A stretch of 64,000 nucleotides of DNA from contig CAYLOJ010000005.1 of the NCBI GenBank assembly GCA_964385285.1, positions 493 to 64,492 of the forward strand, in the 5' to 3' direction. The position numbers were made by a program, and so were the translations under genes. The DNA is from an uncultured Gammaproteobacteria bacterium (GTDB lineage: Bacteria > Patescibacteriota > Patescibacteriia > UBA9570). The notes under the pieces are model-generated. The model was given only the letters and a program-made list of their open reading frames with translations. It had not been told where the DNA came from and made no database searches. Shown in pieces: positions 2,024 through 58,932 of the stretch (its first letter is position 1; each line of letters starts with the position of its first letter).

Positions 2024-2407
2024 ATGAGCGAGCCTCGTAGTGAACATCGTCCAATACCACCTCGAACTGAGGTCCGAAAGTTGTTATCGGATTCCCTATG
2101 GGAGCGTCATCCAATGGCGCCAAAGCCTGATCCAGCACAATTAGAAGAGAAGCGTGATGCCTTACTCGCAGCGAGTACGCCAGATGGTAAGCGCGTTCAA
2201 TTAATTGTAGAGGTGATGCGCAGTAAAGAATCCACTGGCTTTACAGTCACAGTGGAGCCGACGGGTGGTGCGATGACGGCTAATCCAGATTTACACGTGC
2301 GTTTTGAAGTAGCCGGTGCGGCCACTGTTCGGGACGGACTAAAACAACTCTTTGATAAAATGCGTGCAGCTGAATACTCTCCAGAGGTCAGCGGATTAGA
2401 TTTATGA
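2024..2407 (+). CDS. hypothetical protein (127 aa)
   Basis: ATG at 2024. The ORF-track TTG start at 1943 lies inside the upstream terminator hairpin and A-rich spacer, so it is unlikely. Stop overlaps the start of the next gene. Confidence 0.5.
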   Translation: MSEPRSEHRPIPPRTEVRKLLSDSLWERHPMAPKPDPAQLEEKRDALLAASTPDGKRVQLIVEVMRSKESTGFTVTVEPTGGAMTANPDLHVRFEVAGAATVRDGLKQLFDKMRAAEYSPEVSGLDL

Positions 2408-3804
2408 ACAGACTAGGGGGAATAGTCGCGTGCGTGGCTAGTAGTTTTTTTGTCGCTTCGCAAGTGGCGGCGGCATCGTATCTGCACTCGCCAGAGGTAA
2501 AATTATTTACAGCTGAGGTTACAGATTTTTCTGAAGCGAAACATTTTTTTGCTTATGATCAAAGTTTCAACGGGGGAGGCAGCGTGGCCATTGCTGATTT
2601 AGGGAACGACAGTACAGCCGAAATTATTACGGCTGCTGGCTTGGGAGGGCGTGCGCAAATTCGCACGTTTCGCCTGGATGGTTCTTATATCCACCAGTTC
2701 TTTGCGTATGATCAATCAATGGCCGCTGGTGTTAATGTAGCCGCCGGTGATGTTGATGCCGATGGTAGTGCAGAGATTGTGACCGCTCCAAAAGCTGGCG
2801 CAGCTGCGCAAGTGCGGATATTTGATGGCGCTGGTCGGATTGATCAAACGGTTGGGTGGTTTCCCTTTGCTGAAGACTACAGTGGTGGAGTTAATGTGGC
2901 TGTGGGTGATGTTGATGCCGATGGCAAAGCAGAAATTATTGTGGGCAGTGGTGAGGGGATGGAGCCAACGGTCAAAGTGTTTAGTGCTACGGGTGAGCCT
3001 AAAGCCATTGATTTTTATCCATTTGCAAAGGATAGTCAGGGCGGGGTTTCCGTATCCGTCGGAAATGTTGACGCGGATGCAGCTATGGAGGTGATTACTG
3101 CTGTGCAACAATCTGGGGATGCTTGGGTAAAAATTTATGATTACAACGTAGAACGCACGATTGTAAAAGAGTTCAAAGTACTAGACGAAGGTTTTCAGGG
3201 AGGGGTCAATGTGGCTGCCGGTGATGTCGATGCCGACGGTGTCGCTGAAATTGTAGTAGCTGTGCATGGGAAGGGTGAGCCACAGGTCAAACTGTATGAG
3301 GCAGACGGCACAGAGATGAATCCGAGTTTTTTTGCTTACGATGAGACCTTTCAAGGTGGCGTGAATGTAGCGGTAGGGGCGGTGAATGCGGATGGTTATG
3401 CGGATATTGTGACCATGCCTAACCAGTTGAAACCCGAAGGCCGCACCACTGAACATCGCTATGTGCGCGTTGATCTGAGTGAACAACGTTTATATGCCTA
3501 TGAGGATGGTTATCTCATCAATACCTTTTTAATCTCCTCAGGCTTACCTGCCACACCTACGCCTCCAGGGGAGTACCATATTCAACGGAAGATTTATAAT
3601 AAACTATATTCAGGTCCGGATTATTACCTGCCAAACACCTTATATAATTTACAATTCCGGACGCACTACTATCTACACGGTGCCTATTGGCATCATAACT
3701 TTGGACACCCCATGAGCCATGGTTGTATTAACATTGCTTATGAAGATGCCGCCTGGATCTATGATTGGATGCAAGAGGGGGATTTAACCGTGATTGAAAT
3801 ATAG
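2404..3804 (+). CDS. secreted FG-GAP-repeat protein with C-terminal L,D-transpeptidase (YkuD) catalytic domain
   Basis: N-terminal signal peptide. Six or more repeats of the 'F(A/P)YD..F.GG..VA.GDVDADG.AEI' type (FG-GAP/VCBS-like). C-terminus 'HGAYWHHNFGHPMSHGCINI' matches the YkuD His/Cys motif. Confidence 0.75.
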   Translation: MNRLGGIVACVASSFFVASQVAAASYLHSPEVKLFTAEVTDFSEAKHFFAYDQSFNGGGSVAIADLGNDSTAEIITAAGLGGRAQIRTFRLDGSYIHQFFAYDQSMAAGVNVAAGDVDADGSAEIVTAPKAGAAAQVRIFDGAGRIDQTVGWFPFAEDYSGGVNVAVGDVDADGKAEIIVGSGEGMEPTVKVFSATGEPKAIDFYPFAKDSQGGVSVSVGNVDADAAMEVITAVQQSGDAWVKIYDYNVERTIVKEFKVLDEGFQGGVNVAAGDVDADGVAEIVVAVHGKGEPQVKLYEADGTEMNPSFFAYDETFQGGVNVAVGAVNADGYADIVTMPNQLKPEGRTTEHRYVRVDLSEQRLYAYEDGYLINTFLISSGLPATPTPPGEYHIQRKIYNKLYSGPDYYLPNTLYNLQFRTHYYLHGAYWHHNFGHPMSHGCINIAYEDAAWIYDWMQEGDLTVIEI

Positions 3805-3879
3805 CTTGAAGGATAAGCTATTTTTAGTTGCACATTATTTGATGTTTATGTAAATTATGCACGCACTTTGGAGGGATAG

Positions 3880-4776
3880 GTGCAGTACATTGTTCTCACG
3901 GTTGGTTCCTACTTGATCTTCAACCTCGGCGTCTGGTTCAGCACCCGAGGTGGAAGCGACTTTGCACTGCCGCTCGGCTACATGCTTGGGTGCACGTTCA
4001 TCCGCTTGCGGTTGGCCGGGCAAATCAAGCAGCAGGCGAATCACCCCATCCAGTGGTGGGTGGTCATCGGCAACACCGCTTCGATCCTGATCACGGCGAA
4101 CGCGCTGCGCTACGCCCATGCCCGCATCCCGCTCAGCCTCAGCATGGAGGCGGTCTACAACGGGCTGGCCATGGCGAGTTGGTTCGTTTTCCTGTTGCTG
4201 GGTCGCTACTGGCCGAGGCAGTTTAGCGATCAACCCAAGTGGTTCGATCTTGGCTGTCACGGTGTGATGTTCATGCTGGTGGTCACGCGCTTCAGCACCT
4301 ACGGTCAGTTCCACCTCACGGGTGATACCATCGTGGCACTGATCTGCGGCATCCTCGGCTACATCGGTGTCAACATCACCATCAAGCTGATGGCCGGGCA
4401 TCGCCTCAGCAGCGTTTACGGCATCCTCGGCGCGGCAGCTATCTTGCTAGGGGTGCAGATCACCAGTGGCCTTCATCACGAGTGGCATTGGAGTAGCGAT
4501 TCGATCATCAGCATACTGTTGGTGTCCATCGCCAGCTATGGTGTTCCAGTCTACCTGGCCGGTGCCTACGGGTACTTCAAGGGCCTCGCTTCGCTGGTAC
4601 CGCCTCTGGTCTACGATTCACTGCTGGTGGCCTCGCCGCTAGTGATGATCGTACGTCAGGAGTCCATCTCCTACTGGACGATCATCGTCGCCATCAACAT
4701 GCTGATCGTCACGGTGGTGCGCTACCTGTACCACACCGGCGGCTGGCGCAAGCTCAAGTCCAAGTTCCGAACGTGA
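3880..4776 (+). CDS. polytopic integral membrane protein, unknown function (high-GC island gene)
   Basis: GTG start with GGAGG 7 nt upstream; about 63% GC with strong GC3 bias; 7-8 predicted TM segments. The antisense ORFs here are typical high-GC shadow ORFs. Confidence 0.55.
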   Translation: MQYIVLTVGSYLIFNLGVWFSTRGGSDFALPLGYMLGCTFIRLRLAGQIKQQANHPIQWWVVIGNTASILITANALRYAHARIPLSLSMEAVYNGLAMASWFVFLLLGRYWPRQFSDQPKWFDLGCHGVMFMLVVTRFSTYGQFHLTGDTIVALICGILGYIGVNITIKLMAGHRLSSVYGILGAAAILLGVQITSGLHHEWHWSSDSIISILLVSIASYGVPVYLAGAYGYFKGLASLVPPLVYDSLLVASPLVMIVRQESISYWTIIVAINMLIVTVVRYLYHTGGWRKLKSKFRT

Positions 4777-4932
4777 GTGGCCCGGGGCGACCATCTTCGC
4801 CCCACCCCCCCCCTGAACCTAGCATTACGCTGGTAGGTTGAGGTGAGTTTTTCCCTGGACAATTTTTATAAATAGTTTACTCTGCTAGCGCTCAGTACGC
4901 TTAGGCGTTCACCCACTGAGTCGGAGTTTCCA

Positions 4933-5187
4933 ATGCTTCCTCCTGACACTAGTGTTTCTGCATACGACCCCGACGACGACTACACCACCGACTCCCAGGG
5001 CTGTGGCGCCGGCGGAACGCCGCCCCGCCTGCCCACCGTCGATCCGGACGACGAGTCCGACGACGTAGCGATCCCCGAACCCACGGTGATCGCTGCGGAT
5101 GGCGAGCCTGTCGACCCACCCGTCGTCGCTGAGGATGACGACGAGCCGGAGTCCGATGACCCCGCCTATTGGGGGCACCACGAGTAG
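4933..5187 (+). CDS. small acidic Pro/Asp-rich low-complexity ORF (doubtful)
   Basis: 84 aa, GC3-rich, but low-complexity sequence in a high-GC region with overlapping ORFs on both strands. Confidence 0.2.
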   Translation: MLPPDTSVSAYDPDDDYTTDSQGCGAGGTPPRLPTVDPDDESDDVAIPEPTVIAADGEPVDPPVVAEDDDEPESDDPAYWGHHE

Positions 5188-5489
5188 CTACTGAGCTACG
5201 GAGGATGGCCAGGGGAGCGCACACGTGCTCCCCACCACTCTTGAATGTAACCATGCGTTGCTTTGAAGAGTGGTCTAAACGATTTCTCGCTAAAGCGCAT
5301 GATGGTCATTGACTGGATGGCATTTTTTCAGTAATGTCTGAACGCTATATTGTTCTTTTGAGTTTAGAGAAAGATTATATTATGGATCATCAGCGGACAT
5401 GTGGTGAGCTAAGTGGAGATAATGACTATCTCTAGCTAGCTCACTACAGAGTTCGGATTCCACCGGACCTGTTTTCACATGGAGCGTTC

Positions 5490-6761
5490 ATGAGTCACCT
5501 GATCGGAGATCCTGCCATTGCTGCGTTGATCGCGGCGGAAGAAGAGCGCCAGCGCAACGACCTCGAGCTCATCGCTTCGGAGAACTACGTCTCTCCGGGC
5601 GTGCTCGCGGTCGTCGGCAGCATGCTCACCAACAAGTACGCTGAGGGTCTCCCCGGTAAGCGCTACTACGGCGGCTGCGAGGTCGTCGACAAGATCGAGG
5701 AGCTGGCCCGCGCCCGCGCCCTTCAGTTGTTCGGTCTGTCCGACACCAACTGGGGGGTAAACGTGCAGCCTCACTCCGGTGCCAACGCCAACCTGGCGCT
5801 GTACCTCGCCACCCTCCAGCCGGGCGACACGCTGATGGGGCTGAACCTCTCGAATGGGGGACACCTCACCCATGGATCCACCGCCAACAGCTCCGGCAAG
5901 CTCTACCGGGCCGTCTACTACGGCGTCAACGAGTCCGGCTACATCGACATGAACGAGGTCCGCGCGATCGCCCTGCGCGAGCGCCCGAAGCTCATCATGA
6001 CCGGTGCTTCCGCCTATCCGCGCACCTGGAACTTTGCCAGCTTCCGGGCCATTGCCGACGAGATCGGTGCCATCCTGGTCAACGACATGGCTCACATTGC
6101 GGGGCTGGTCGCCGCTGGGCTGCATCCGTCGCCGTTCGAGTACTGCGACTACGTCACGACCACCACACACAAGACCCTGCGGGGTCCGCGTGGTGGTCTC
6201 GGCTTCGCTCGCGGCAGCGAGAGGATCAAGGCCTACAACTCTGCGGTCTTCCCGGGTTCCCAAGGTGGTCCGCTCATGCACGTCATCGCCGGCAAGGCGG
6301 TGGCGTTCCACGAGGCGCTCCAGCCTGGATTCCAGATCTACCAGCAGCAGGTGCTCGCCAATGCCCAGGTGATGGCGCGCGTGCTCATGGATTGGGGCTT
6401 CGACCTCGTCTCCGGCGGCACCGACAACCACCTGATGCTGCTCGACCTCTCGAATCGCGACTACTCCGGCAAGGAGGCAGAAGCGATCCTCGGGCGGGCT
6501 GGTATTACCGTCAACAAGAACACCGTACCCAACGAGAAGCGCTCGCCCTTCGTCACCTCCGGGGTCCGCATCGGCACCCCGGCCATGACCACCCGCGGCT
6601 GCAACTCCACGGACGCGGTCGACGTGGCGAACTGGATCGCGGACGCTCTGGAGCATCGCACCGACGAGGCACTGCTCAGTCGTGTTCGTGACGAGGTCCA
6701 CAAGTTGATGGCCAATCGGCCGATTCCGGGCTTCAAAGGGCCGAAAGTCGACCACGAGTAA
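5490..6761 (+). CDS. glyA: serine hydroxymethyltransferase
   Basis: Motifs 'ELIASENY', '[17 protein letters not shown]', and PLP-lysine motif '[14 protein letters not shown]'. About 65% GC with extreme GC3 bias; GGAG SD upstream. Confidence 0.95.
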
Positions 6762-6934
6762 TTCCTGATCTTCTCTCTACTTCCACCCAGGAGGTGACCA
6801 TCATCTGATGGCCGCGAGGAGAGACCAGTACATCTCTCCTCAACGCCCTTGAGATAACCTAACTAGGTTGTTTGAAGGGCGTGATAGAACCGATTCAGGT
6901 TGAGTTCTATAAAGTAAGATGTTATCATTCTGTC

Positions 6935-8353
6935 ATGAAAACTTCTTCCCAAGTATATTTAATCGTTAGCTGTTTAGCCGTAGCTACCCTGGCCCTACCC
7001 GCAACCACTTTAGCCTATGATTCCATGGGTCCAGAAGTGAAGGTCTTTGATCGTAGTCTTGCTGAAACCAACAGTTTTAATGCCTTAAATGGCACCTTTG
7101 AAGGCGGCTTAGATGTGGCAGTTGGTGATGTGGATGGTGATGGCGTAGATGAAATTGTGGTGGGAGCGGGCCGTGATGGTGGTCCAATGGTGCAAGTATT
7201 TGAAGGTGATGGTAGCTTAAAAGCGCAGTGGTTTGCCTATGATAGTAATCTGCGGACTGGTATCAAAGTAGCAGTCGGGGATCTCAATGGAGATGGTAAA
7301 GCTGAGATCGTTACAGGTGTCAGTGCTGGAGGCGGTCCTCAAATACGGATTTTTGATGCCAATGGGAAGAGTAAATTTGGTACGGGTTTTTTTGCCTTTG
7401 ATAGCAGTTTCCGTGGCGGGTGTGATGTGACGGTGGGTGATTTTAATGGCGATGGCAAAGCAGAGATTGCGGCTGCAGCCGGCCCAGGAGGAGACCCTCA
7501 TGTGCGTGTCTTTTCCAGAAAAGGTCGTTTTCTAGGTACAGAATTTCGTCCATTTGCGTCCGATAATAAAGGTGGAGTAGCCTTAGCGACGGCCAATGTT
7601 GATGGTGGCAGTGACGATGAACTGGTCATGTCCATTTACTCAGCCGGTGAAGATTGGGTGAAAGTATATAAAAACAATGGAACAATCTTGGGCGAGTGGA
7701 AGAATTTTGCAGGTCTGTATACTGGAGCGGTTGTCGCTGGTGGTGATATTGATAAAGATGGCAAGGATGAGGTAGCAGTGACACCACGCCAAGGAGCCGG
7801 ACCACACATTCAATTTTATGAAGGTCACGGTGCCTATACCGGCAAAAGTTTTTTTCCGTATGATTCAGATTTTCGTGGGGGTGTAAATATGGCCATGGGC
7901 GATGTAACCGGCGATGGCAAACTGGATGTCGTTACTGTGCCTGGTAAAAATCGCTCGGCTGGTCGAGTAGATCTCGTGCGTTACATTGATACAGATATCT
8001 CTGAACAAACTACGCGCGTATATGAATATGGCGAGCTTGTGCGAGAATTTAAGATCTCCTCGGGTGTGTCCGGTCATGAGACTAACCTCGGCACCTACTC
8101 TGTGCTGCAAAAAATTTACATGAAAGATTACAAATGGGAGTATGGTGAAAATGATCCTGACAACTACGATATTAAAGATGTAAAGTGGAATCTACTCTTT
8201 AATCCAACTGAACGGGAATATTTACACTACGCCTATTGGCATAATAATTTTGGTCACCCCATGAGTCATGGTTGTGTGAATATCAATGCTGAAAATGCTG
8301 AGTGGTTATACAATTGGGCTCAAGTTGGAGATCCAGTGATTATTCACAGTTAA
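6935..8353 (+). CDS. secreted FG-GAP-repeat protein with C-terminal L,D-transpeptidase domain (paralog of 2404-3804)
   Basis: Signal peptide from the ATG at 6935; the track start at 6872 lies inside a hairpin. Repeats of the 'VAVGD.NGDGKAEI' type. C-terminus 'HYAYWHNNFGHPMSHGCVNI'. Confidence 0.75.
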   Translation: MKTSSQVYLIVSCLAVATLALPATTLAYDSMGPEVKVFDRSLAETNSFNALNGTFEGGLDVAVGDVDGDGVDEIVVGAGRDGGPMVQVFEGDGSLKAQWFAYDSNLRTGIKVAVGDLNGDGKAEIVTGVSAGGGPQIRIFDANGKSKFGTGFFAFDSSFRGGCDVTVGDFNGDGKAEIAAAAGPGGDPHVRVFSRKGRFLGTEFRPFASDNKGGVALATANVDGGSDDELVMSIYSAGEDWVKVYKNNGTILGEWKNFAGLYTGAVVAGGDIDKDGKDEVAVTPRQGAGPHIQFYEGHGAYTGKSFFPYDSDFRGGVNMAMGDVTGDGKLDVVTVPGKNRSAGRVDLVRYIDTDISEQTTRVYEYGELVREFKISSGVSGHETNLGTYSVLQKIYMKDYKWEYGENDPDNYDIKDVKWNLLFNPTEREYLHYAYWHNNFGHPMSHGCVNINAENAEWLYNWAQVGDPVIIHS

Positions 8354-14242: not shown

Positions 14243-16621
14243 ATGTCTGCAGATATTACAGTCTTTGCCGAAACTAATTTCCGTAACCAACGACGTAAGT
14301 TTGGTATTAAGCGCGATGACCGTCGTCGTCATATGTACGTGGTGGGTAAAACCGGTATGGGTAAATCGACCTTGCTGGAAAATATGATTATTGCCGATAT
14401 CCGCGCTGGTAATGGGTTGGCAGTCGTTGATCCGCACGGCGATCTGGCGGAAAAAATTCTAGAATATATTCCGAATAATCGGGTAAACGATGTAATCTAT
14501 TTTAATCCATCGGATACAAAATTTCCGATCGCCTTCAATATTTTGGAGAGCATTGGCGAAGATTACAAACATTTAGTGGCCTACGGCTTAGTCGGTGTGT
14601 TCAAGAAAATCTGGGCAGATTCGTGGGGTCCTCGTATGGAATATATTATGACCAACACTATCTTGGCGCTGTTGGAGTATCCCGGTAGTACGTTGTTAGG
14701 GTTAATGCGCATGTTGGTAGACAAAACCTATCGCAAAAAGGTTGTTTCCAAAATTCAGGATCCGGTCGTAAAAACCTTCTGGGCAGATGAGTACGCAAAT
14801 TATTCTGAAAAGTTCCGTACAGAGGCGATTGCTCCGATCCAAAACAAAGTCGGTCAATTTTTAGCTTCTGCCATTATTCGTAATATCGTTGGACAATCGA
14901 AAAGTACGATTGAGATGCGCGATATTATGGATAAGCAGAAGATTCTGATTATGAATCTAGCGAAAGGCCGTATTGGTGAAGAAAACTCCGCGTTGTTAGG
15001 CGCAATGATGATTACAAAATTGCAGATTGCCGCGATGAGTCGTGTGGATATTCCAGAACCAGATCGTAAGGATTTTTATCTCTATGTTGATGAGTTTCAG
15101 AACTTTGCCACCGATAGTTTTGCGGGAATTTTATCTGAAGCGCGTAAATATCGGTTGTGTTTAATTATGGCTCATCAGTACTTTGAGCAGCTGGGAGATG
15201 TGGTGAAAGCCGCTGTGTTCGGTAACGTTGGTACGATGATTGTATTTCGCGTAGGTGCGGCGGATGCTGCGGAATTAGAACTGGAATTTGCTCCGCAGTT
15301 CTTGCCAACGGATATTGTAAACCTGAAAAAGTATACTTTTTGCTTGCGTCTGATGGTGGATGGCGTTGCAACCGAACCTTTTTCTGGCATTGGTTTAGCG
15401 CCGGCGTCAGGTGCTACTAGTAACCGAGATAAAATTATTAAGGTGTCACGTGAACGCTATGCGCGTCCACAGGAGATGGTAGAAGATCGTATCATTCGGT
15501 GGAGTGGTGTAGAAATTACCAAACCCGGTGCTACTCCGGTTGATGGTGCACCAGTTGATGATAACAATGATGAAGGGGATGATATGAACTGGCCTGAACC
15601 CACTTGGAAAAATGATCTGCCAGATGATGAGTTAGCGGATATTAGTCCGATTGTGGCAGTGCCAGGCGGTGTGAATGTGGAAGCACCGGTAGCTAATACT
15701 AGCAGTGCCTTTGTAAATGCGGATGGATTTATTCCTGGTGATCACGCTCCTACAATCACAAAAACCCCTACTGAGATGCCAGTGGTCAAAGCTGAGCCTG
15801 TTGTGAAATTGGCTCCCGAGCCGATCAGTGAGGTGCCAGCCGCAGTAACAGCTAGTACAACAGAAGCCAATCGTCCGCGGATTAGCTTTATTAACCATCT
15901 ACCATCTTCTTTGGCGACTGAACCTGTGGAAGAACCTCAACCGGTTGTTGCTGTACCGGTAGTGGATACACCCACACCTACAGTTATGCCTGTTCAACCT
16001 ATTGCACCGACCAAACCACAGCCGCAGGTGAAACAGGCCGTTACTCCACCCACATCTGTTCCGGTAGCACCACAACCTAAAGTGCAACCGATTGCGTCAA
16101 TCAAACCCCCCGTGGTGGCTCCTGTGCAATCCGCCGCACCGATCAAGCCAGCCGCGCCACGTGTTGTACTTGAAACAGAGCCAGACGCTACGGATGATGA
16201 AGGCGATGAGGATACTGACGATGAGGATACTGAAGGTACTGACACTAGTGGTCCAAGTGTTTCTTTGCAGGCACTCAAACAGGGTAATGTCCAATCCGTA
16301 AAATTTTCTGGTGCTCAGAATACTAGTGGTAGTAATAATGGGGTAGGTAATAGTAATTCTGGTGGTGGCGATCCAGCAAAACGTAAACGGAAGCGTAAAC
16401 GGAAGCGTGGAAATGGCAGTGGTAATCCTAGTACCCCTGGTGTTAATCCCGTTGCTGCAACGAGCAACCCTCAACCTAAACAAACTTTTTCTGCGGAAGC
16501 CAGGCCGCGTGCTCAAACTCCTCAACCTAGCCCTGCAGCTAAGCCTGTGGCTCCAGCGCCAACTCCTAAACCAGCCGTCAGTGCTGATACCACTAAAGTA
16601 CAGTGGGGCGATCTATTATGA
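14243..16621 (+). CDS. VirD4/TraG/TraD-like type IV coupling-protein-type ATPase with long disordered Pro/Val/Ala/Thr-rich C-terminal tail
   Basis: Walker A 'VVGKTGMGKST' and Walker B 'LYVDEFQNF' in the TraD/T4SS-DNA-transfer arrangement. The last ~330 aa are low complexity with an acidic 'TDDEGDEDTDDEDTEGTDT' stretch and 'KRKRKRKRKRG'. Confidence 0.6.
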   Translation: MSADITVFAETNFRNQRRKFGIKRDDRRRHMYVVGKTGMGKSTLLENMIIADIRAGNGLAVVDPHGDLAEKILEYIPNNRVNDVIYFNPSDTKFPIAFNILESIGEDYKHLVAYGLVGVFKKIWADSWGPRMEYIMTNTILALLEYPGSTLLGLMRMLVDKTYRKKVVSKIQDPVVKTFWADEYANYSEKFRTEAIAPIQNKVGQFLASAIIRNIVGQSKSTIEMRDIMDKQKILIMNLAKGRIGEENSALLGAMMITKLQIAAMSRVDIPEPDRKDFYLYVDEFQNFATDSFAGILSEARKYRLCLIMAHQYFEQLGDVVKAAVFGNVGTMIVFRVGAADAAELELEFAPQFLPTDIVNLKKYTFCLRLMVDGVATEPFSGIGLAPASGATSNRDKIIKVSRERYARPQEMVEDRIIRWSGVEITKPGATPVDGAPVDDNNDEGDDMNWPEPTWKNDLPDDELADISPIVAVPGGVNVEAPVANTSSAFVNADGFIPGDHAPTITKTPTEMPVVKAEPVVKLAPEPISEVPAAVTASTTEANRPRISFINHLPSSLATEPVEEPQPVVAVPVVDTPTPTVMPVQPIAPTKPQPQVKQAVTPPTSVPVAPQPKVQPIASIKPPVVAPVQSAAPIKPAAPRVVLETEPDATDDEGDEDTDDEDTEGTDTSGPSVSLQALKQGNVQSVKFSGAQNTSGSNNGVGNSNSGGGDPAKRKRKRKRKRGNGSGNPSTPGVNPVAATSNPQPKQTFSAEARPRAQTPQPSPAAKPVAPAPTPKPAVSADTTKVQWGDLL

Positions 16622-18210
16622 TCTTGGCGACTTGTTCGCAGTGCCAACAAGCGTTTTCCATTTTTGAGCAAGATCAGACCTTTTACAAGCGTCTTGGAGT
16701 GCCAAATCCTGTACGCTGTCCGCAATGTCGATTTCAGTTGCGCATGTCATTTCGGAATGAACGGTTTCTCTACCAGCGGAATTGTGCGTTGTGCCATAAG
16801 GTCACTTTGTCACAATATTCACCAGATAAACCCTATGTCATTTATTGTCGTGCCTGTTGGTGGAGCGATCAATGGGATCCACTATCATTCGGACAGCCTA
16901 TCGATTGGTCTAGACCTTTTTTTGAGCAGCTGGCGGAGCTAAAGTTGCACACGCCGCGACTTGCATTACTGAACGATGGTGATAGTGAAAATAGTGAATA
17001 TTGTAACCGTGTGAATAAGCTGAAAAATTGCTACATGATCTTTGATGCTGTGGGGAATGAAAATTGTAGTTACGGTGCTGGCTTATACGGCAATCGAGAC
17101 AGCGTAGATTGTGATTATTGTGATCGCGTTGAGTTATGTTATGACTGTAGTTATTGCACAGAATGCTATAACCTAAAATTCAGCCGGGAGAGTGTGAATT
17201 GTCGAGACAGTGAGTACTTACTCGATTGCGTTGGTGTCTCTAATTCATTGATGTGTGTTGGTTTGCGGAATGTAGAGTATCATTATAAAAATAAACCGGT
17301 CACACCAGCGGAACTGAACCGACTACGACAGATGCCCCACAGCAGTGCTGAGTTTGAGCAATTTGCTTTAAACATGCCACGGCGCTACTACAATGGTGTA
17401 AATAACGCTGATAGTAGTGGTGATCATTTGGTAAATACACACGCTGTCCAAAACTCCTTTCAAGTGCGAGATTCTGAAAACTGTAGCTACTGTTATGGCG
17501 TGCATCACAGTAAGGATTCTTACGATTATACGATTTGGGGCGAACAAGCCGAACTGATGTATGAAGCGCATGCCTGTGGTGGACAGACAACACGCACCTT
17601 ATTTGGCAATGTGGTTTGGTACGGACACGATACCTATTATTGCGACCACTGCTTGAATGGAGCTGTAGATTGTTTTGGCTGCATTGGTTTAAAGAATCAA
17701 TCAAACTGTATTCTGAATAGATCATATTCTCCCGAAGTGTACCAAGCCACCAAAGATAAATTAATTGAACACATGAAAGCGACGGGTGAGTGGGGTCAAT
17801 TTTTTCCGGAGCGTTTGAGCGATTTTGCATATAATGAAACGATGGCTCAAGAATTCTTTCCGCTGACCAAAGCACAAGCTCTAACCCGAGGTTGGCAGTG
17901 GCAGGATCACTTACCCGGTATCTATGGTAAGGCTGATGCGGGTAAGCAGATCTATGATTGCATCGATTGTAGGAAGAATTTTAAATTGGTGACAGCAGAG
18001 CTAGAGTTCTATCAAAAACAGGGTATTCCTGCACCATCGCGCTGTCCGGATTGTCGGCACGCTGCCAGAATGCGATACAGGCCACCCTACCAACTATGGG
18101 AGCGCAGCTGCATGAACACGGGCTGCACGAATCGTTTCCAAACCGCTTATAGTCCAGAACGTAAAGAGATCATCTATTGTGATAGCTGCTATAAACAGTT
18201 AGTCTATTAA
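16618..18210 (+). CDS. Cys-rich tandem-family protein A (N- and C-terminal zinc-ribbon-like modules, Cys-rich repeats)
   Basis: ATG at 16618 overlaps the TGA of the upstream ATPase (ATGA). About 10% Cys. N-terminal 'CSQCQQ..FY..LGVPNPVRCPQCR..LRMSFRNERFLYQRNCALC..VIYCRACWWSD'. C-terminal 'FYQKQGIPAPSRCPDCRHAARMRYRPPYQLWERSC...IIYCDSCY'. Confidence 0.7.
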   Translation: MILATCSQCQQAFSIFEQDQTFYKRLGVPNPVRCPQCRFQLRMSFRNERFLYQRNCALCHKVTLSQYSPDKPYVIYCRACWWSDQWDPLSFGQPIDWSRPFFEQLAELKLHTPRLALLNDGDSENSEYCNRVNKLKNCYMIFDAVGNENCSYGAGLYGNRDSVDCDYCDRVELCYDCSYCTECYNLKFSRESVNCRDSEYLLDCVGVSNSLMCVGLRNVEYHYKNKPVTPAELNRLRQMPHSSAEFEQFALNMPRRYYNGVNNADSSGDHLVNTHAVQNSFQVRDSENCSYCYGVHHSKDSYDYTIWGEQAELMYEAHACGGQTTRTLFGNVVWYGHDTYYCDHCLNGAVDCFGCIGLKNQSNCILNRSYSPEVYQATKDKLIEHMKATGEWGQFFPERLSDFAYNETMAQEFFPLTKAQALTRGWQWQDHLPGIYGKADAGKQIYDCIDCRKNFKLVTAELEFYQKQGIPAPSRCPDCRHAARMRYRPPYQLWERSCMNTGCTNRFQTAYSPERKEIIYCDSCYKQLVY

Positions 18211-18211
18211 T

Positions 18212-19867
18212 ATGTCGTCGAACTGTCGACACTGTCAGTCTGCATTTGTAATCACGAGCAGTGACCAAGCTTATTATGATCGCATCGCCGTACCGGCACC
18301 AACCCTATGCCCGCGTTGTCGTTTGCAGCGTCGCCTAAACATGCGCAATGAACGTGTCTTGTATCGACGCTCATGCGATTTGACCAGTGAATCAATCGTG
18401 ACCATTTTTTCACCGGATAGCCCATATACGGTGTATAGCCAAAGCGCTTGGTGGAGCGATCGTTGGGATCAACTAAAATTTGGCCGGGAGATGGATTTTA
18501 CTCAGCCCTTCTTCGCGCAGTTAAAAGCTTTGCAACTACAGCAGCCGCGCATGGCCTTACTCGCCAAAGATAGCGAGAATTCTGAATATACTAATCATTC
18601 TGCTTACAACAAAAATTGTTATTTAGGTTTTTCTGTGGTGAATTGTGAAGACGTAGCGTACGGATTCATGAATTTTAAATGTCAAAATTTAGTGGATTGC
18701 AGTTACATGTATGATCATAGCGAGCTGTGTTATGAATCTTTCTATGGACACGGAAATTATCGCTGTGCTTACACCACGCTTTGTCGGAATTGCACGAATG
18801 TTTGGTTTAGTTTTGATCTAAGTGGTTGTAAGGATTGCTTCTTGTCATATAACCTGCGCAATAAGCAATATTGTTTTTTAAATCAGCAATTAACTGCCGT
18901 TGAATATCAGCAGCGCGTGGCTGAGTATCAAACCATGACCTATGAGCAACAGCAGGGTCTTATTCAACAATGGCGGATGCTAATGGCTACGCAAGCCGTG
19001 CATCAAGCAACTCATCAAATTCATTGTTCAGACACCACGGGTAATTATCTGGCGCGGTGTCATCAAGTGCACGAAGGATATTATGTATCCGAGGCAGAAA
19101 ATTGTAGTTATGTAGCGCAAGCGGAAAATATTAAAGATTGTGTTGATGTAACCAATGTAGCACCGGCCGAAGCCTGTTATGAGGTTGCGGCTATTATTAA
19201 TGATAATCATTGCAAGTTTACCAACTACTCATATGATGATAGTTTCTTAGAATATTGCGATCACGTATTTAATTCACAACATCTCTTTGGTTGTGTTGGT
19301 CTAAATCGCCAGAAGTATTGTATTTTGAATCGGCAATATACGGAACCAGAATACGAGCGATTAAAAGCCAAATTAATCGCTTACATGAAAACGACGGGGG
19401 AGTACGGTGAGTTTTTCCCCTTAGGATATTCACCCTTTGCGTATAACGAAACGGTTGCCCAGGATTTTTTCCCTCTCACCAAAGCGCAAGCCCTAGCCTT
19501 GGGTGCTCAGTGGAATGATGCACTCGATCTCTTATCGCCAATTACCAATGGAGTAGATGCAAGTACATTGCCAGATACGATTGCTGGTGTTGAGGATGAT
19601 ATCCTGACTAAAACGTTGATATGCATTGTCTCTAAACGTGCCTATAAAATTCAACCCACTGAACTGTACCTGTATCGACAGCTGGGAATACCGTTGCCAC
19701 GTAAACATCCCGAAGTTCGGTTGAAGGAGCGCATGACCCAACGGGTCACCCCCGGTTTATTTGAACGCCAGTGCAACAAATGTTTACGGTCAGTGGCATC
19801 CAGTTTTGCAGCCGATCGTTCAGAGCGGATCTATTGTGCAAGCTGTTATCGCGAGGCCGTTTATTAG
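18212..19867 (+). CDS. Cys-rich tandem-family protein B (partly degenerate zinc ligands)
   Basis: Starts 1 nt after A's stop. N-terminal 'CRHCQ...YYDRIAVPAPTLCPRCRLQRRLNMRNERVLYRRSC', but the second knuckle is lost ('VYSQSAWWSD'). The C-terminal module has 'RKHPEVR' in place of CPxCR. Confidence 0.7.
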   Translation: MSSNCRHCQSAFVITSSDQAYYDRIAVPAPTLCPRCRLQRRLNMRNERVLYRRSCDLTSESIVTIFSPDSPYTVYSQSAWWSDRWDQLKFGREMDFTQPFFAQLKALQLQQPRMALLAKDSENSEYTNHSAYNKNCYLGFSVVNCEDVAYGFMNFKCQNLVDCSYMYDHSELCYESFYGHGNYRCAYTTLCRNCTNVWFSFDLSGCKDCFLSYNLRNKQYCFLNQQLTAVEYQQRVAEYQTMTYEQQQGLIQQWRMLMATQAVHQATHQIHCSDTTGNYLARCHQVHEGYYVSEAENCSYVAQAENIKDCVDVTNVAPAEACYEVAAIINDNHCKFTNYSYDDSFLEYCDHVFNSQHLFGCVGLNRQKYCILNRQYTEPEYERLKAKLIAYMKTTGEYGEFFPLGYSPFAYNETVAQDFFPLTKAQALALGAQWNDALDLLSPITNGVDASTLPDTIAGVEDDILTKTLICIVSKRAYKIQPTELYLYRQLGIPLPRKHPEVRLKERMTQRVTPGLFERQCNKCLRSVASSFAADRSERIYCASCYREAVY

Positions 19868-19989
19868 CGTATACTATTAATTGACATGTGACTGAATAAT
19901 TTATACTAAGGTTAGGTGAAAATAAATATTCGAACGCTAAAAATCTAATTCCATTTGACCACGTTAAGCCATTCCATTACGCTTCTGTT
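19868..19989 (+). repeat. duplicated intergenic block, copy 1 (after family gene B)
   Basis: Shares 'TAGCGTATA..T..ATTGACAT' and 'AAAwATCTAAwTmCAwTTGACCACGyTTAGC' with 23258-23395. Confidence 0.55.
19881..19909 (+). promoter_or_regulatory. sigma70-type promoter for family genes C-D
   Basis: TTGACA (19881-19886), 17-nt spacer, TATACT (19904-19909); lies in the intergenic block duplicated at 23258-23395. Confidence 0.5.
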
Positions 19990-21567
19990 ATGCCAACTCG
20001 TACATGTACCAATTGCTCCGGACAATTTAATCTCTCATCTGCAGATGAAAAATTTTATCAGTCCATCAGTGCACCACTACCCAAACAGTGTCCGCGTTGT
20101 CGCCAGCAGCGGCGCTTAGCGTATCGTAACGAACGCGCATTATTTGCTGATCAGTGTGCGAAATGTCAAACAAAGATTTTGTCATTGTATCAACCCACGG
20201 ATGGTTTGACGGTCTATTGCCAGACGTGTTGGTGGAGTGATGATTGGGATGCAGCCGATTATGGACAGGAGATCGATTGGAATCGTTCATTGTTGGAGCA
20301 ATATCAGGAAGTACGCAAACGTGTACCGCGCCTAGCCATTGTCAATTTGAATAGTGAAAATTCAGATTACACCAACATGTCAGCGGACAACAAAAATTGT
20401 TATCTATTGTTCGCATCAGAAAACTGTGAGAACTGTTCCTATGGAAAATTAGTTCAACACTGCAAAGACTGCTTTGATAATGCTTTTCTGTATGATTCTG
20501 AATTGTGTTATGAATGCATTAATTGTCGCAATTGTTTTCAGTGTACATATTTGCAGGATTCCCAAGACTCACGAGATTGTCATTACTCGTTAGGCTTAAA
20601 AGGTTGCAGTAATGTTTTTTTAAGCAATGATTTGCATAATAAAGAGTATTATATTCGTAACCAACCCGTTGCCCCGCAGGAATATGCAGCCAAGGTAGCA
20701 GAGTTATTAAAGGATCAACCGCAATGTCAGCGAGAATGGGATGCGTTATCACAAAAACGGATTGTAAAATACGCCGGAATTTTGAATAGCCCAGATTGCA
20801 CTGGTGACGCACTGACCAATTGTAAACGTGTGTTTGACTCGTATGATATTACCGATGGTCAAGATATCCGTTATTGCAGTGATGCCCTCACTCCGAAAGA
20901 TAGTTATGATTGTTCATTCTTCTATTACAATCCAGAATTGTGTTACGACTCACTCAGCATGCTGGAAACATACAACGTGCATTATTCAACCTTTATTTTT
21001 TATAGTCGTGATGTTGAATATGGTGATCAGATCCACAATAGTCATGACGTCTTATTATCTTCTTGCCTCCGTAAAAAAGAGTACACCATATTAAATAAAG
21101 TTTACTCTCCTACGGAATACGCAGACTTACGGAAGCGAGTGATTGCTAAAATGACCGAAGATGGTGAATACGGAGCCTTGCCGCCACTGAAGTATAGTTT
21201 GTTTGCCTATAATGATACTGTCGCTAACGAATACTTTCCATTGACCGCTGATCAAGCCAAACAAAGACATCTACGTTGGAACCAATCCGCAGATGCTGTA
21301 ACTACTAAGCCCTTTAACCTGACAGCGGCCGAAAAAGCCTTTTACGCTCAATTACATTTAACCGAACCTACTGTACATCCCGAACTGCGTCATCGTCGTC
21401 GCATGGCTAAACGTAATCCACGCAAATTATGGGAGCGCCAGTGTATGTGCGTGGAGGCAGATCATCAGCACGCCGTACAGTGTCCTAAGAAGTTTCACAC
21501 TACGTATATGCCTGATCGTTCAGAAAGTGTCTATTGTGCCGAGTGTTATCAAAAACGTTTTTACTAA
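19990..21567 (+). CDS. Cys-rich tandem-family protein C
   Basis: N-terminal 'CTNCSG..FYQSISAPLPKQCPRCRQQRRLAYRNERALFADQCAKC..VYCQTCWWSD'. C-terminal '...VHPELRHRRRMAKRNPRKLWERQCMC..DHQH..VYCAECY'. Confidence 0.7.
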   Translation: MPTRTCTNCSGQFNLSSADEKFYQSISAPLPKQCPRCRQQRRLAYRNERALFADQCAKCQTKILSLYQPTDGLTVYCQTCWWSDDWDAADYGQEIDWNRSLLEQYQEVRKRVPRLAIVNLNSENSDYTNMSADNKNCYLLFASENCENCSYGKLVQHCKDCFDNAFLYDSELCYECINCRNCFQCTYLQDSQDSRDCHYSLGLKGCSNVFLSNDLHNKEYYIRNQPVAPQEYAAKVAELLKDQPQCQREWDALSQKRIVKYAGILNSPDCTGDALTNCKRVFDSYDITDGQDIRYCSDALTPKDSYDCSFFYYNPELCYDSLSMLETYNVHYSTFIFYSRDVEYGDQIHNSHDVLLSSCLRKKEYTILNKVYSPTEYADLRKRVIAKMTEDGEYGALPPLKYSLFAYNDTVANEYFPLTADQAKQRHLRWNQSADAVTTKPFNLTAAEKAFYAQLHLTEPTVHPELRHRRRMAKRNPRKLWERQCMCVEADHQHAVQCPKKFHTTYMPDRSESVYCAECYQKRFY

Positions 21568-21586
21568 CTTCTGAGCTGGTTGAAGT

Positions 21587-23257
21587 ATGAATATCCAATG
21601 CCAACAGTGTCACAAAACGTTTCAGGTCACGCCCGATGACCAGTCGTTTTACGAACGGATCAAAGTACCTGCACCGACACTATGTCCAGATTGTCGCTAT
21701 CAGCGGCGCATTGTGTGGAGGAATGAGCGAACGTTATATAGTCGCCAGTGTGATCTTTGCCATAAAGGTATTATCTCGCTCTATCATCCGGCAAGTCCCT
21801 ACACGGTCTATTGCTATGAGTGCTGGTACTCTGATCAATGGAATCCATTAGATTACGGGCAGGAGATCGATTTTAGTCGTCCATTTTTTGAGCAGTTCAA
21901 AGCGTTGCAGCTAAAAGTCCCTCGGTTGTATGCCTTGATGGTTAACAATGAAAATTGTGAATATACCAATGGTACTCAGCAATGCAAAGATTGTTACATG
22001 ATTTTTGCTAGTGATCATGACGAACAGTGTATGTATTCCTATGGCACCTTTAATTCTGTGCAATCATTAGATCTAATGAGTAGTACTAAATGTGAGCTGT
22101 GTTATGAATGTGTTGGTTGCAGCAATTGTTATGATCTGCAGTATTCTGAGGATTGCAGTAATTGTCACTCCTCACTATTTCTGATTGACTGCAAGGGGAG
22201 TAGTGATTGCTTCATGTCGTATGGATTGCGAAATAAACAATATGTTTGGCAAAATCAGCAATTAACAGCTGAACAGTATCAGACAAAGCTGGCAAATTTA
22301 AAACGCAGTAGCTATCAAACGATTGCTCGGCTAAAAACAGAGTTTGCTAATCTGAAAAAGAAACACATCTTCAAATATTATCATGGCCAGAATAATGAGA
22401 ATTGTTCTGGTGACTACCTGGAGCGGTGTGTCAATAGTACTCACTGCTTTGAAAGTTTTGGGATTCAAAATTGCAAGTATATTACACATGGTAACCAAAT
22501 TAAAGATACCTATGATGGTTATATGAATGTGGATGGAGTGGAGCTCGGTTATGAATTAGTGGGGGCGATTGGTTCCTATAATGTGAAGTATGCGATTGCC
22601 TATTATGGTGGCCGAGATTGTGACTATATGGATACGGCCAAACAGGTGAATAACAGTTTTGGTTGTGTGGGATTGCAGCACCAGCAGTATTGTATTCTGA
22701 ACAAACGCTACAGCCCAGAAGACTATGCCCAGTTGAAGAGTCGTCTGATTGAACATATGAAAACTACGGGTGAGTATGGTCAGAATTTTCCAGTGACCTG
22801 TTCACCATTCGCGTATAATGAAACAGCAGCTCAGGACATGTATCCTTTGACCAAAGCTGAAGTGGAGGGTCGGGGATGGCAATGGCGTGATCCAATCGTC
22901 AAAGAGGCGCGCTATAGTACTTATCGTGTAACGGATGACATCGCTAAAACTAATGATGATGTCTTGCAAACATTTTTGACCTGTGCGCAATGCCATAAGC
23001 CTTATAGAGTTGTAGCAGCAGAATTGGCGTTTTACCGTACGCAACAGATTCCGTTGCCACGCTGCTGTTTTGAATGTCGTCATCGCCAGCGCTTAGATCA
23101 CCGCAACCCGAGAGCTCTCTGGCATAGGCAGTGCATGTGCACTCAACCAGATCATGGCCACGCTGCAGTTTGTGCCAACACCTTTGAAACGGCTTATCCA
23201 GAGAGTAATGCGGCAATTGTCTACTGTGAACGCTGCTACGATCAAACCATTGCTTAA
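21587..23257 (+). CDS. Cys-rich tandem-family protein D
   Basis: N-terminal 'CQQCHKTF..FYERIKVPAPTLCPDCRYQRRIVWRNERTLYSRQCDLC..VYCYECWYSD'. C-terminal 'FYRTQQIPLPRCCFECRHRQRLDHRNPRALWHRQCMC..DHGH..VYCERCY'. 19 nt after C. Confidence 0.7.
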   Translation: MNIQCQQCHKTFQVTPDDQSFYERIKVPAPTLCPDCRYQRRIVWRNERTLYSRQCDLCHKGIISLYHPASPYTVYCYECWYSDQWNPLDYGQEIDFSRPFFEQFKALQLKVPRLYALMVNNENCEYTNGTQQCKDCYMIFASDHDEQCMYSYGTFNSVQSLDLMSSTKCELCYECVGCSNCYDLQYSEDCSNCHSSLFLIDCKGSSDCFMSYGLRNKQYVWQNQQLTAEQYQTKLANLKRSSYQTIARLKTEFANLKKKHIFKYYHGQNNENCSGDYLERCVNSTHCFESFGIQNCKYITHGNQIKDTYDGYMNVDGVELGYELVGAIGSYNVKYAIAYYGGRDCDYMDTAKQVNNSFGCVGLQHQQYCILNKRYSPEDYAQLKSRLIEHMKTTGEYGQNFPVTCSPFAYNETAAQDMYPLTKAEVEGRGWQWRDPIVKEARYSTYRVTDDIAKTNDDVLQTFLTCAQCHKPYRVVAAELAFYRTQQIPLPRCCFECRHRQRLDHRNPRALWHRQCMCTQPDHGHAAVCANTFETAYPESNAAIVYCERCYDQTIA

Positions 23258-23395
23258 TAGCGTATAAGTTCAATTGACATTCACGTATTTTTTGCTAACC
23301 TAAAATTAGGTATTTTTTGAATTTTCCCCAGCTAAATATCTAAATACAATTGACCACGCTTAGCACTAATATTACCGTAAGATCATTGCACCACT
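23258..23395 (+). repeat. duplicated intergenic block, copy 2 (after family gene D)
   Basis: See copy 1: same conserved ends, internal indels. Confidence 0.55.
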
Positions 23396-24172
23396 ATGAT
23401 TACTAGCAAAGTTAAGAAAGATCTTTCCCAACTAGGTTTAACCGACAACGAGATCAAATTCTATGTGGCCGGATTGGAGTTAGGCTTGGCGACGATTCCA
23501 CAAATTGCTGAACGCGCCGGTTTATCCCGCATGACTGGTTATAACATTTTTAAAGTGTTGAGCCAGAAAGGGATGGCCGATATGGATGTACGTAGTTATG
23601 GTCAGAAATGTAAAGTGGCGAAACCAGCAAAATTACTCACTTTGTTTGAGCAGGAACGCAAAAGCTTAGATAAATTGGCCACCGACATGCCCAATTTAAT
23701 TGGGGAGTTGAATGTGTTGTATTCCTCAGTACCAGAGGATTTAGAGATCCATTACTTTCGCGCGAAAGAAGCGATCACTAAAATTTGGGACGAGGCCTTA
23801 ACCAACACAAAAAAAGGGGATGATCTATTAGTGCTATCCGCTGTAGATCTAGCGCCTACTCTGGGTGAACACTATCTGGAATTCATGGAAGAGCAACTGT
23901 TGCGTAGTACAGAGAAAGGGATTCACCTGAAAATGATTTTGGAAAAAACAGGTACCTATACCATCGCGCGAAGTGAGCTACAGCAACTTATTCCAGAATC
24001 AATGCAAATGAAATTAGGCGCTACATGTGATCAATTGATTTATGCTGATCACGTGGCCTACATATTTCCAGGCCGTGAATTGTTTGGCATCACTATTCAC
24101 AATAAAGAATTGGCTAATCACCATTCCAGAATTTTCTACACGTTGTGGAATAAAACCTATTCGTTAAATTAA
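23396..24172 (+). CDS. TrmB-family HTH transcriptional regulator
   Basis: N-terminal 'LSQLGLTDNEIKFYVAGLELGLATIPQIAERAGLSRMTGYNIFKVLSQKGM' fits the TrmB wHTH pattern (GL..E.KVY..LL..G..T..EIA...G..R..VY..L..L..KG). Embedded between family genes D and E. Confidence 0.6.
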   Translation: MITSKVKKDLSQLGLTDNEIKFYVAGLELGLATIPQIAERAGLSRMTGYNIFKVLSQKGMADMDVRSYGQKCKVAKPAKLLTLFEQERKSLDKLATDMPNLIGELNVLYSSVPEDLEIHYFRAKEAITKIWDEALTNTKKGDDLLVLSAVDLAPTLGEHYLEFMEEQLLRSTEKGIHLKMILEKTGTYTIARSELQQLIPESMQMKLGATCDQLIYADHVAYIFPGRELFGITIHNKELANHHSRIFYTLWNKTYSLN

Positions 24173-24258
24173 TTACCGTTTAGTAATGGGCATAAAGCCC
24201 ATCCCTCTCAATTATTTCTGGAGACCCCGGGTTTATCCTGGTGGTCAAACGATTATTT

Positions 24259-28390: not shown

Positions 28391-28394
28391 AAGG

Positions 28395-30809: not shown

Positions 30810-30810
30810 A

Positions 30811-33115: not shown

Positions 33116-33118
33116 AGA

Positions 33119-36666: not shown

Positions 36667-36975
36667 ATGGCATCACCAACATTACCGCTCGACACGAAAA
36701 CTGCGGAACGCTTAGCATGGTTGTTGGCTCAGTCAGTGATGCCGGAAGAGCAAAAGTCAGCTTGGTTAAATTTGTTGCCGTTAATGTCTGTGGAACAGGT
36801 GCAGCGCCTAATGCAAGTGTTGGAGCAGGAACAGGCGGCCTATCAAGCGGTTAGTGCTAGTTTTTTCTCTGACTTGGATGCAGTGGTGAAAGAGATGAAT
36901 ACGAGCTTAGAACGATTGCAAGCCAAAGAACGCAAGGAGATCGAACGTTATATCCAAAAACTACTCCATGAATAG
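36667..36975 (+). CDS. small all-helical hypothetical protein, translationally coupled to the giant gene
   Basis: 102 aa; its stop overlaps the giant gene's start (ATGAATAG). Confidence 0.5.
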   Translation: MASPTLPLDTKTAERLAWLLAQSVMPEEQKSAWLNLLPLMSVEQVQRLMQVLEQEQAAYQAVSASFFSDLDAVVKEMNTSLERLQAKERKEIERYIQKLLHE

Positions 36976-58931: not shown

Positions 58932-58932
58932 G

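Follow-up and report, generated by a model that had tools for sequence, protein, structure and literature searches.

Genes of foreign origin are usually recognised by their composition: atypical GC content and codon usage are the standard first-line signal of recent horizontal transfer, and an amelioration clock dates such events. This amelioration model of alien-gene islands is said to go back to Lawrence & Ochman in 1997, which PMC12455944 cites as its reference 27. Here we describe two GC-rich genes, glyA and a gene for a ten-helix membrane protein, which lie between paralogous FG-GAP/YkuD genes in a 64-kb stretch of contig CAYLOJ010000005.1 (the window) from a tiny bacterium of groundwater with a low-GC genome, a member of the candidate phyla radiation (CPR, Patescibacteria). 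The original prediction, made from the sequence alone, had read them as single-gene islands recently acquired from a high-GC donor. Like classical alien-gene islands, both are outliers in GC, in GC at third codon positions (GC3) and in tetranucleotide usage, with sharp boundaries in a genome of other composition, and the phylogenetic affinity of glyA points to a high-GC donor lineage. Unlike such islands, they show a composition without decay, since orthologues stand at GC3 0.77-0.92 under saturated synonymous divergence; the amino-acid composition of GlyA drifted at unmoved GC3; neither integrase nor tRNA nor repeats mark their borders; and for two of the three families concerned there is no high-GC source. 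We therefore consider it moderately likely that these are long-resident genes in an old, maintained, gene-specific GC3-rich state and not the imprint of a recent transfer. The kinds of gene are known, a xenologue of serine hydroxymethyltransferase (SHMT) and a new small family with a drug/metabolite transporter (DMT) fold; what is unusual is the occurrence of non-ameliorating islands in three families and several lineages. GC and tetranucleotide anomalies are treated as fading with age in PMC12455944, whose passages on GC content, amelioration and codons describe no conserved GC3-rich orthologues, and our literature search found no description of non-ameliorating compositional islands across families and lineages.

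Along the window, GC rose from about 0.42-0.48 to 0.58-0.66 over approximately 3900-6800, with sharp edges, and the composition is atypical for the genome; at the 1-kb scale no rise of like size was seen elsewhere in the 64 kb, with only small bumps near 49, 52 and 58 kb. The excess resides at third codon positions. GC3 was 0.81 in the transporter gene and 0.84 in glyA, as extreme as predicted, versus 0.36-0.46 in 47 ordinary open reading frames (ORFs) of the window, which we refer to as the backbone (genome backbone about 0.42), and GC1 and GC2 of the island ORFs were near backbone values. The tetranucleotide check suggested along with the prediction ranked the island windows as the strongest outliers of the whole window. 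A GC content of 63-65%, proposed for both islands, applies to glyA but not to the first island (about 59%), and the description as single-gene islands fits the transporter gene and glyA but omits a third GC-rich ORF of 84 aa (ORF84) in the first island. The supposedly AT-rich spacer is simply at backbone level (Table 1). GC3 was distributed bimodally across the ORFs of the window, and intergenic DNA was AT-rich. Codon usage of the island genes was of a generic high-GC type, correlating with genes of two Myxococcota-type contigs (r = 0.4-0.9) and uncorrelated with the backbone. Antisense ORFs were rejected as real genes and are shadows of GC3-rich genes, as had been anticipated; the 426-aa minus-strand ORF shadows glyA.

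Relatives retain this composition over large evolutionary distances. Their island genes have GC3 0.77-0.92 in backbones of 0.36-0.50, at 64-74% amino-acid identity to the window (GlyA 68-74%, transporter 64-67%; for comparison, the backbone proteins SecD and FG2 share 77% and 74%). Between the window and the related contigs L001 and L003, proteins differ by 20-37% for backbone genes and by 26-36% for island genes. At four-fold degenerate sites of conserved residues, backbone identity to these two contigs was 0.33-0.36 versus 0.26 for random sequences, with 9-14% of the signal surviving, and only 2-3% survives between the window and L005 or L030. Identity this near to random indicates that synonymous sites of the backbone are almost saturated, and the presence of equally GC3-rich orthologues at such divergence implies that the composition is not recent. 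Under an F81-type neutral model, assuming a GC content at four-fold sites (GC4) of 0.90 at the split, GC4 of the islands should now stand at about 0.57-0.64 in the window and, for the relatives, at 0.44-0.70; the values observed are 0.75-0.81 and 0.77-0.92. Differences of the C<->G type between orthologues affected 20-33% of island four-fold sites and 9-13% in the backbone, which indicates that synonymous sites of the islands turned over while staying G or C. Furthermore, among 121 aligned SHMTs the content of Phe, Tyr, Met, Ile, Asn and Lys (FYMINK) was highest in the window GlyA and in P0061, the copy of L005 (z = 3.6-3.8, rank 1 of 118), at a GC3 of 0.84-0.91. A high FYMINK content with unmoved GC3 implies that AT pressure acted on the GlyA protein, the reverse of neutral amelioration.

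These data bear directly on the original prediction, in which both genes came recently, and without amelioration since, from a high-GC donor, for example among the Actinobacteria and possibly the organism's own host. Such an event would account for the strikingly atypical composition, and the closest non-CPR relatives of GlyA are indeed high-GC bacteria. Nevertheless, relatives with saturated synonymous sites in the backbone have orthologues that are equally GC-rich and homologously flanked. No protein matches GlyA at more than 73-74% identity, its named relatives are of the Myxococcota type, and the transporter has no high-GC homologues. The transporter locus is shared with L003 and L005 and thus not absent from relatives, and the best non-CPR match of GlyA reaches only 73% identity, so that no near-identical donor was found. 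The borders also lack mobility signatures: the window contains no tRNA, the neighbouring genes include no integrase, and the only flanking direct repeats are the paralogous FG-GAP/YkuD genes themselves. We consequently regard a recent import as very improbable. Scans of viral contigs for the transporter and a formyltransferase described below returned nothing usable, leaving a phage-borne origin without support.

The product of glyA is a canonical SHMT, as predicted. Like bacterial GlyA proteins (structures 1dfo and 6ymd), it matches the family over its full length (PF00464, E=2e-163, 544 bits, profile positions 5-399 of 399; NF000586, 576 bits at a cut-off of 335), and its translation contains the pyridoxal phosphate (PLP)-binding lysine motif that defines the SHMT family. 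The enzyme would supply glycine and 5,10-methylene-tetrahydrofolate. Its 120 best homologues are 64-74% identical to it, and the named ones among them belong to metagenome-assembled genomes (MAGs) of Myxococcota, Myxococcales and 'Deltaproteobacteria', two 'Pseudomonadota' MAGs and one Kerfeldbacteria MAG. Actinobacterial names are absent from these named homologues, which speaks against the proposed donor; the M. tuberculosis SHMT (3h7f) scored below E. coli-type SHMTs. A high-GC donor as such is upheld for glyA and not for the transporter: the nearest non-CPR GlyA relatives (72-73% identity) come from high-GC Myxococcota-type MAGs, and two of them, inspected on contigs of 66% and 73% GC, show rpiB-glyA(-nrdR-ribD-ribE) synteny, which indicates that glyA is native there. 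Unlike in these donor-type genomes with rpiB-glyA(-nrdR-ribD), glyA stands alone in the window.

Four GlyA copies were found in CPR context, namely that of the window, P0068 (L001), P0061 (L005) and P0063. In neighbour-joining (NJ) trees they clustered in 64/100 replicates, or in 88/100 for the three without the window copy, nested among high-GC Myxococcota-type sequences, and their topology matched that of FG1, the left flanking gene. Unlike other SHMTs, the CPR copies have in common an acidic extension at the C-terminus and two derived residues, of which quartets drawn at random share none; a derived Met is seen at window residue 407. With moderate confidence, these comparisons suggest that glyA is foreign, that a single capture brought it from a high-GC Myxococcota-type lineage, and that it was then inherited, perhaps exchanged, within the CPR clade. 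In PMC12455944, GlyA is listed among the functions transferred exclusively within Patescibacteria, and gain, loss or replacement of glyA within the clade would fit the exchange reported there; the window resembles that case in the presence or absence of glyA among related genomes and in the relic of a second copy.

The first island gene encodes a 298-aa protein with ten transmembrane helices in the DMT fold, probably a transporter of a previously unannotated family, which would move a small metabolite. Unlike known DMT families, this one is extremely small and lacks any DMT profile match in Pfam or NCBIfam, EamA included; only DUF2062 appeared in Pfam, below threshold (19 bits versus a cut-off of 27.4), and NCBIfam gave no match at all. 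Identity to the DMT members LicB (7b0k), YddG (5i20), the triose-phosphate translocator (5y78) and SLC35 nucleotide(-sugar) transporters was 6-14%. Seven homologues were found among 5.8 billion proteins, a profile search returned 28 among 1.84 billion (1.84e9) representatives, and a metagenome scan with the profile contributed no more than two short contigs. Eight contexts were recovered, at four or more different loci and in backbones of 40-51% GC, and in each the transporter is a GC3-rich single gene, with GC3 0.72-0.87 in seven of the eight and 0.59 in L004 (backbone about 0.40). L003 and L005 carry it at the window's locus; in L027 it lies beside ilvA/leuA-like genes, in L028 beside a radical-SAM gene and carA, and in L004 beside gatB and arg genes, 2-5 kb downstream of thyA-folA-tmk, while L025 and L026 are short contigs. 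This variety of neighbours (glyA; thyA-folA-tmk, gatB and arg genes; ilvA-like; carA) gave no consistent clue to the substrate. No high-GC donor or high-GC homologue context was found, as all recovered contexts are low-GC and CPR-like, and the amino-acid composition of the family and GC1/GC2 of the window copy are low-GC-like as well.

Three further single genes of the window are GC3-rich, namely those for a formyltransferase-family protein, a CDP-alcohol phosphatidyltransferase and a 198-aa protein without family match (Table 1). The formyltransferase has 75 homologues, the named ones all from CPR or unclassified MAGs, so that no high-GC source appeared among them. One NCBI protein, P0155, on a contig of 79,875 bp, is 100% identical to it; look-ups of the exact sequences of P0155 and of the window GlyA gave no match. 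Syntenic orthologues of the formyltransferase beside an M23 peptidase gene, 57% and 53% identical, have GC3 0.73 in L030 (GCA_016207285.1) and 0.69 in L031 (GCA_043821615.1, a Patescibacteria MAG of 39% GC overall), with neighbouring genes at 0.18-0.49, and the divergence of the formyltransferase tracks that of the M23 neighbour. Control loci around SecD in other CPR genomes contained no such GC3 outliers. A second gene of L031 (1741-2859, minus strand; 372 aa, no Pfam match) has GC3 0.60 compared with 0.18-0.49 in its neighbours. All three further outliers of the window are followed by a GC-rich hairpin. The region 27581-33640 of the window is syntenic with L030 1443-9642, comprising a methyltransferase, an HhH-GPD glycosylase, QueG (29368-30429 in the window), a ferric-reductase-like protein, a BadF-type ATPase and a cobalamin adenosyltransferase; the formyltransferase-M23 pair directly follows this block in L030 and lies about 17 kb away in the window, which implies that a rearrangement occurred.

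Both island genes carry recipient-type Shine-Dalgarno sequences (SDs) and CPR-type promoter regions abutting the start codon, in agreement with the prediction of host-like GGAGG and GGAG motifs and AT-rich -35/-10-like boxes; the GGAGG of the transporter gene stands 5 nt before its GTG start. A block ...tcGGAGGgAtaGTG in the transporter upstream region is conserved in L003, L005 and L027. The glyA upstream region is 85% identical over 60 nt to L005 2298-2357, upstream of the L005 glyA; its conserved block (5327-5384) is a putative promoter or 5'-untranslated region element, and a promoter-like site lies at 5394-5423. Rfam revealed no riboswitch or other known RNA at the gathering threshold or at E<=1, apart from a spurious mir-486 match. 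The region would consist of two self-contained, singly transcribed genes of a Kerfeldbacteria-like genome.

GC3-rich ORFs in general combine an AT-rich upstream region and SD conserved among relatives with a GC-rich hairpin directly 3' (G-rich 5' arm, C-rich 3' arm), followed by CCCC or ACCCC and A-rich sequence. The first 70 nt downstream of these genes fold at -18 to -30 kcal/mol, whereas the values behind almost every other gene are about -6 to -19. The hairpin after the transporter gene is kept in L003, L005 and L027, the last of which has compensatory changes that give a GGAGTGA/TCACTCC stem, and the module after glyA (6794-6882; minimum free energy -54 kcal/mol, z = -8.3) is homologous to that after the L005 glyA. 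The original prediction placed hairpin terminators here. The hairpins exist, but C-rich or mixed sequence and no U-tract follows them, and none was called in a terminator consensus scan; they are not canonical intrinsic terminators. A simple 'GGG...CCC hairpin' descriptor was no commoner in the window (12) than in shuffles (13.5) and thus cannot mark such 3' elements. A canonical bidirectional terminator (AAAAAACCG...CGGTTTTTT) occurs at 58865-58932, between the convergent genes 58268-58864 and 58933-59478, which shows that the genome does use U-tract terminators elsewhere.

Table 1. Features of the two islands, their flanks and further GC3-rich genes, in positions of the 64-kb window
Feature	Position	Strand	GC	GC3	Properties
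FG1, FG-GAP repeat/YkuD L,D-transpeptidase paralogue 1 (left flank)	2404-3804	+		0.42	Pfam YkuD, FG-GAP, FG-GAP_3
Transporter upstream region	3805-3879	+	0.33		SD GGAGG 3870-3874
Probable transporter gene	3880-4776	+	0.588	0.81	298 aa, 10 helices, DMT-superfamily fold, GTG start
Post-transporter hairpin and A-C9 tract	4784-4813	+			GGGGCGA/TCGCCCC at 4784-4803, directly after stop codon; no U-tract
ORF84	4933-5187	+	0.667	0.75	84 aa, acidic, Pro-rich; own GGAG
Two-hairpin module after ORF84	5212-5274	+			Fold z = -5.6
Spacer	5251-5489		0.42		
glyA upstream region	5309-5489	+	backbone level		Conserved block 5327-5384; SD GGAG 5481-5484
glyA (SHMT)	5490-6761	+	0.642	0.84	423 aa; PF00464, NF000586
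Three consecutive GC-rich hairpins after glyA	6794-6815, 6816-6841, 6843-6882	+			No U-tract
Downstream region	6891-6934		0.34		
FG2, FG-GAP/YkuD paralogue 2 (right flank)	6935-8353	+			Pfam match
CDP-alcohol phosphatidyltransferase	49149-49811	+		0.78	GC-rich hairpin 3'
Formyltransferase-family protein	51695-52507	-		~0.70	~270 aa; PF00551
198-aa protein	58268-58864	+		0.67	No family match

The junctions also decide on an assembly or binning chimera, in which high-GC fragments of another organism were joined into a CPR contig and which the original prediction named as its possible undoing. Contigs of relatives do often end at or near these genes, L001 starting inside glyA and L005 ending just after it. 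Yet the same junctions between GC-rich genes and low-GC flanks, with conserved junction sequence, recur in at least 8 independent assemblies (NCBI, Logan, JGI), and CPR-type SDs and promoter regions abut the start codons. This recurrence excludes a chimera without recourse to reads, and its probability is negligible. More generally, contigs of relatives tend to break inside or beside GC-rich genes or just upstream of FG2 (both ends of L005 and the 5' ends of L007, L008 and L010 in addition to L001), which may reflect coverage or GC bias, or the FG-GAP paralogy.

ORF84 had no Pfam or NCBIfam match and is absent from L005. Its end ...CACCACGAGTAG matches the end of glyA ...GACCACGAGTAA, and it aligns weakly with the acidic C-terminal tail of L001 GlyA (score 47); on these alignments, it probably descends from the acidic C-terminus of a former glyA copy or is what is left of it. 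The downstream sequence 5204-5278 is 73% identical to L005 3811-3894, downstream of the L005 glyA. The whole segment 4933-5274 (ORF84 and two hairpins) resembles a diverged duplicate of the glyA 3' end with its downstream module, with matching stop contexts and homologous hairpins, and may be left over from a glyA copy, earlier or in tandem, whose acidic tail was as long as in L001 GlyA.

Several observations weigh against a single capture followed by long residence. Support for GlyA monophyly is only moderate (64/100, NJ only), and distances among CPR copies are about as large as those to donor copies, so that separate acquisitions of glyA by CPR lineages are possible. L003 lacks glyA at this position, and its nucleotide identity of 78.5% makes it a fairly close relative of L001; the presence of the gene in L001 and its absence from L003 imply gain, loss or movement of glyA over shorter times. 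Island four-fold sites retain more identity (12-34%) than backbone sites, pointing to possible later exchange or stronger constraint at the island genes. Shuffling of synonymous codons gave a suggestive signal of extra mRNA structure (z -1.1 to -4.1), one control reaching -2.6, and the comparison comprises a handful of genomes, mostly short contigs. Part of this would be expected under recurrent replacement, in which every lineage received its copy fairly recently, at one and the same position, from unsampled high-GC sources (the host, or high-GC CPR bacteria), its GC being renewed each time. The nearly star-like GlyA tree, with CPR copies as far from each other as from Myxococcota copies, the difference between L001 and L003, the relic of a second glyA 3' end in the window, the variable FG1-FG2 gap with its PemK toxin-antitoxin pair in L003 and the listing of GlyA as exchanged within Patescibacteria in PMC12455944 are all consistent with such replacement. 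However, neither the transporter (28 representatives in 1.84e9 proteins, contexts all low-GC) nor the formyltransferase (named homologues all CPR or unclassified MAGs) has a high-GC source, relatives share homologous, AT-rich flanks of CPR type that travel with the genes, formyltransferase divergence tracks its M23 neighbour and GlyA topology matches FG1, and the amino-acid composition of GlyA has already drifted toward low-GC usage. Recurrent replacement is thus unlikely, though it deserves to be kept in view.

Non-adaptive GC-biased gene conversion (gBGC) would instead place the genes at recombination hot spots that are often exchanged among strains and where biased repair raises GC. It would fit discrete genes at different loci in different genomes, gains and losses between relatives, and the enrichment of both G- and C-ending codons. 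The excess, however, lies almost entirely at third codon positions and breaks off at the start codon; the transporter gene of the window has GC1 and GC2 like those of the backbone, and the amino-acid composition of GlyA moved the opposite way, although conversion should raise GC at all positions. To our knowledge, an effect of +0.4 GC3 is also far above anything reported for bacterial gBGC. We consider this explanation improbable.

The maintained state of long-resident genes is supported by the transporter, glyA and the formyltransferase, three unrelated families that all stay GC3-rich in relatives, and by flanks that are homologous among relatives, namely the SD block, the block upstream of glyA and the 3' hairpin modules with their compensatory changes. 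What maintains the state would be selection, acting on synonymous sites or on the structure, stability or decoding regime of the mRNA, and the maintained GC3 would act as a form of gene-specific expression control. Two other causes of a GC3-rich state were rejected. Optimal codons of highly expressed genes do not account for it, as secDF and the sigma-factor genes of the window and ribosomal-protein genes in L004 are at backbone GC3; a GC-ward mutation bias with selection keeping the backbone AT-rich is contradicted by the AT-rich intergenic DNA and the bimodal GC3. Carrying the idea further, a few monocistronic genes across deeply diverged Patescibacteria might be marked by a selectively maintained GC3-rich codon and mRNA regime, including the G-arm/C-arm 3' hairpin, so that composition would be a heritable expression control and not a transfer scar. 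This is a conjecture, and a rather doubtful one. The marked set would contain the SHMT, the formyltransferase-family protein and the DMT-fold transporter, perhaps with the CDP-alcohol phosphatidyltransferase and the 198-aa protein, and control may operate through mRNA stability, decoding by a tRNA subset or coupling to nucleotide supply.

The backbone belongs to a Kerfeldbacteria-like CPR genome. In a SecD scan of species-representative genomes the closest matches (77-81% identity) were in MAGs titled Candidatus Kerfeldbacteria and the more distant ones in Parcubacteria and Patescibacteria, and the Kerfeldbacteria-like contigs retrieved stop just upstream of FG2. FG1 and FG2 both consist of FG-GAP repeats and a C-terminal YkuD domain (41% identity over 467 aa). 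FG1 is 76-78% identical to FG1 of L003 and L005, where it likewise precedes the transporter gene, and FG2 is 73-74% identical to FG2 of L001, L003 and L007. FG2 probably starts at ATG 6935 rather than TTG 6872, which yields a signal-peptide-like N-terminus; a promoter-like site precedes it at 6900-6928. L001 (GCA_016207285.1, a Kerfeldbacteria MAG) reads glyA-586aa(-)-FG2-p181-SecD-SecF-sigma70, in the gene order of the window, with glyA adjoining FG2; the Logan assemblies L003 and L005 read FG1-transporter-antitoxin-PemK-374aa-585aa(-)-FG2-SecDF and FG1-transporter-glyA, the latter with glyA at the window's locus. The collinearity of L001 with L003 breaks off exactly where the 585/586-aa gene has its 3' end, with glyA beyond this breakpoint in L001 and a 374-aa gene in L003. 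The content of the FG1-FG2 gap thus varies among relatives (L003 2965-6533, window 4777-6934, L001 1-3239); in L003 it holds the antitoxin/PemK pair, the 374-aa secreted-looking protein and the 585-aa minus-strand gene, and no glyA.

Elsewhere in the window, four of five consecutive ORFs of 525-556 aa at 16603-25887 begin with a treble-clef zinc-finger domain (PF13451) and are possibly paralogous; the run is broken by a TrmB-like regulator (23396-24172) and follows a TrwB/TraG-like coupling-protein ATPase (14243-16621). Two ferric-reductase-like paralogues with transmembrane, FAD and NAD domains (30811-32115, minus strand; 56921-58198, plus strand) are unusual redox equipment for CPR bacteria, and a 1623-aa ORF (36968-41839, plus strand) is of backbone composition.

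Altogether, three unrelated families break the rule that atypical composition signals recent transfer, with GC3 0.7-0.9 in genomes of 36-51% GC at saturated synonymous divergence, and the likely source of CPR glyA is corrected to a Myxococcota-type lineage. The breaks of relatives' contigs mean that GC-rich genes may be under-represented in binned CPR genomes. If the pattern is general, composition-based detection and dating of horizontal transfer in CPR bacteria would mislabel old resident genes as recent imports. It would likewise reveal a gene-specific force on synonymous sites in organisms whose effective populations are thought to be tiny and whose regulators few, and the one-carbon/folate enzymes, the transporter and the lipid enzyme may then form a functionally linked set.

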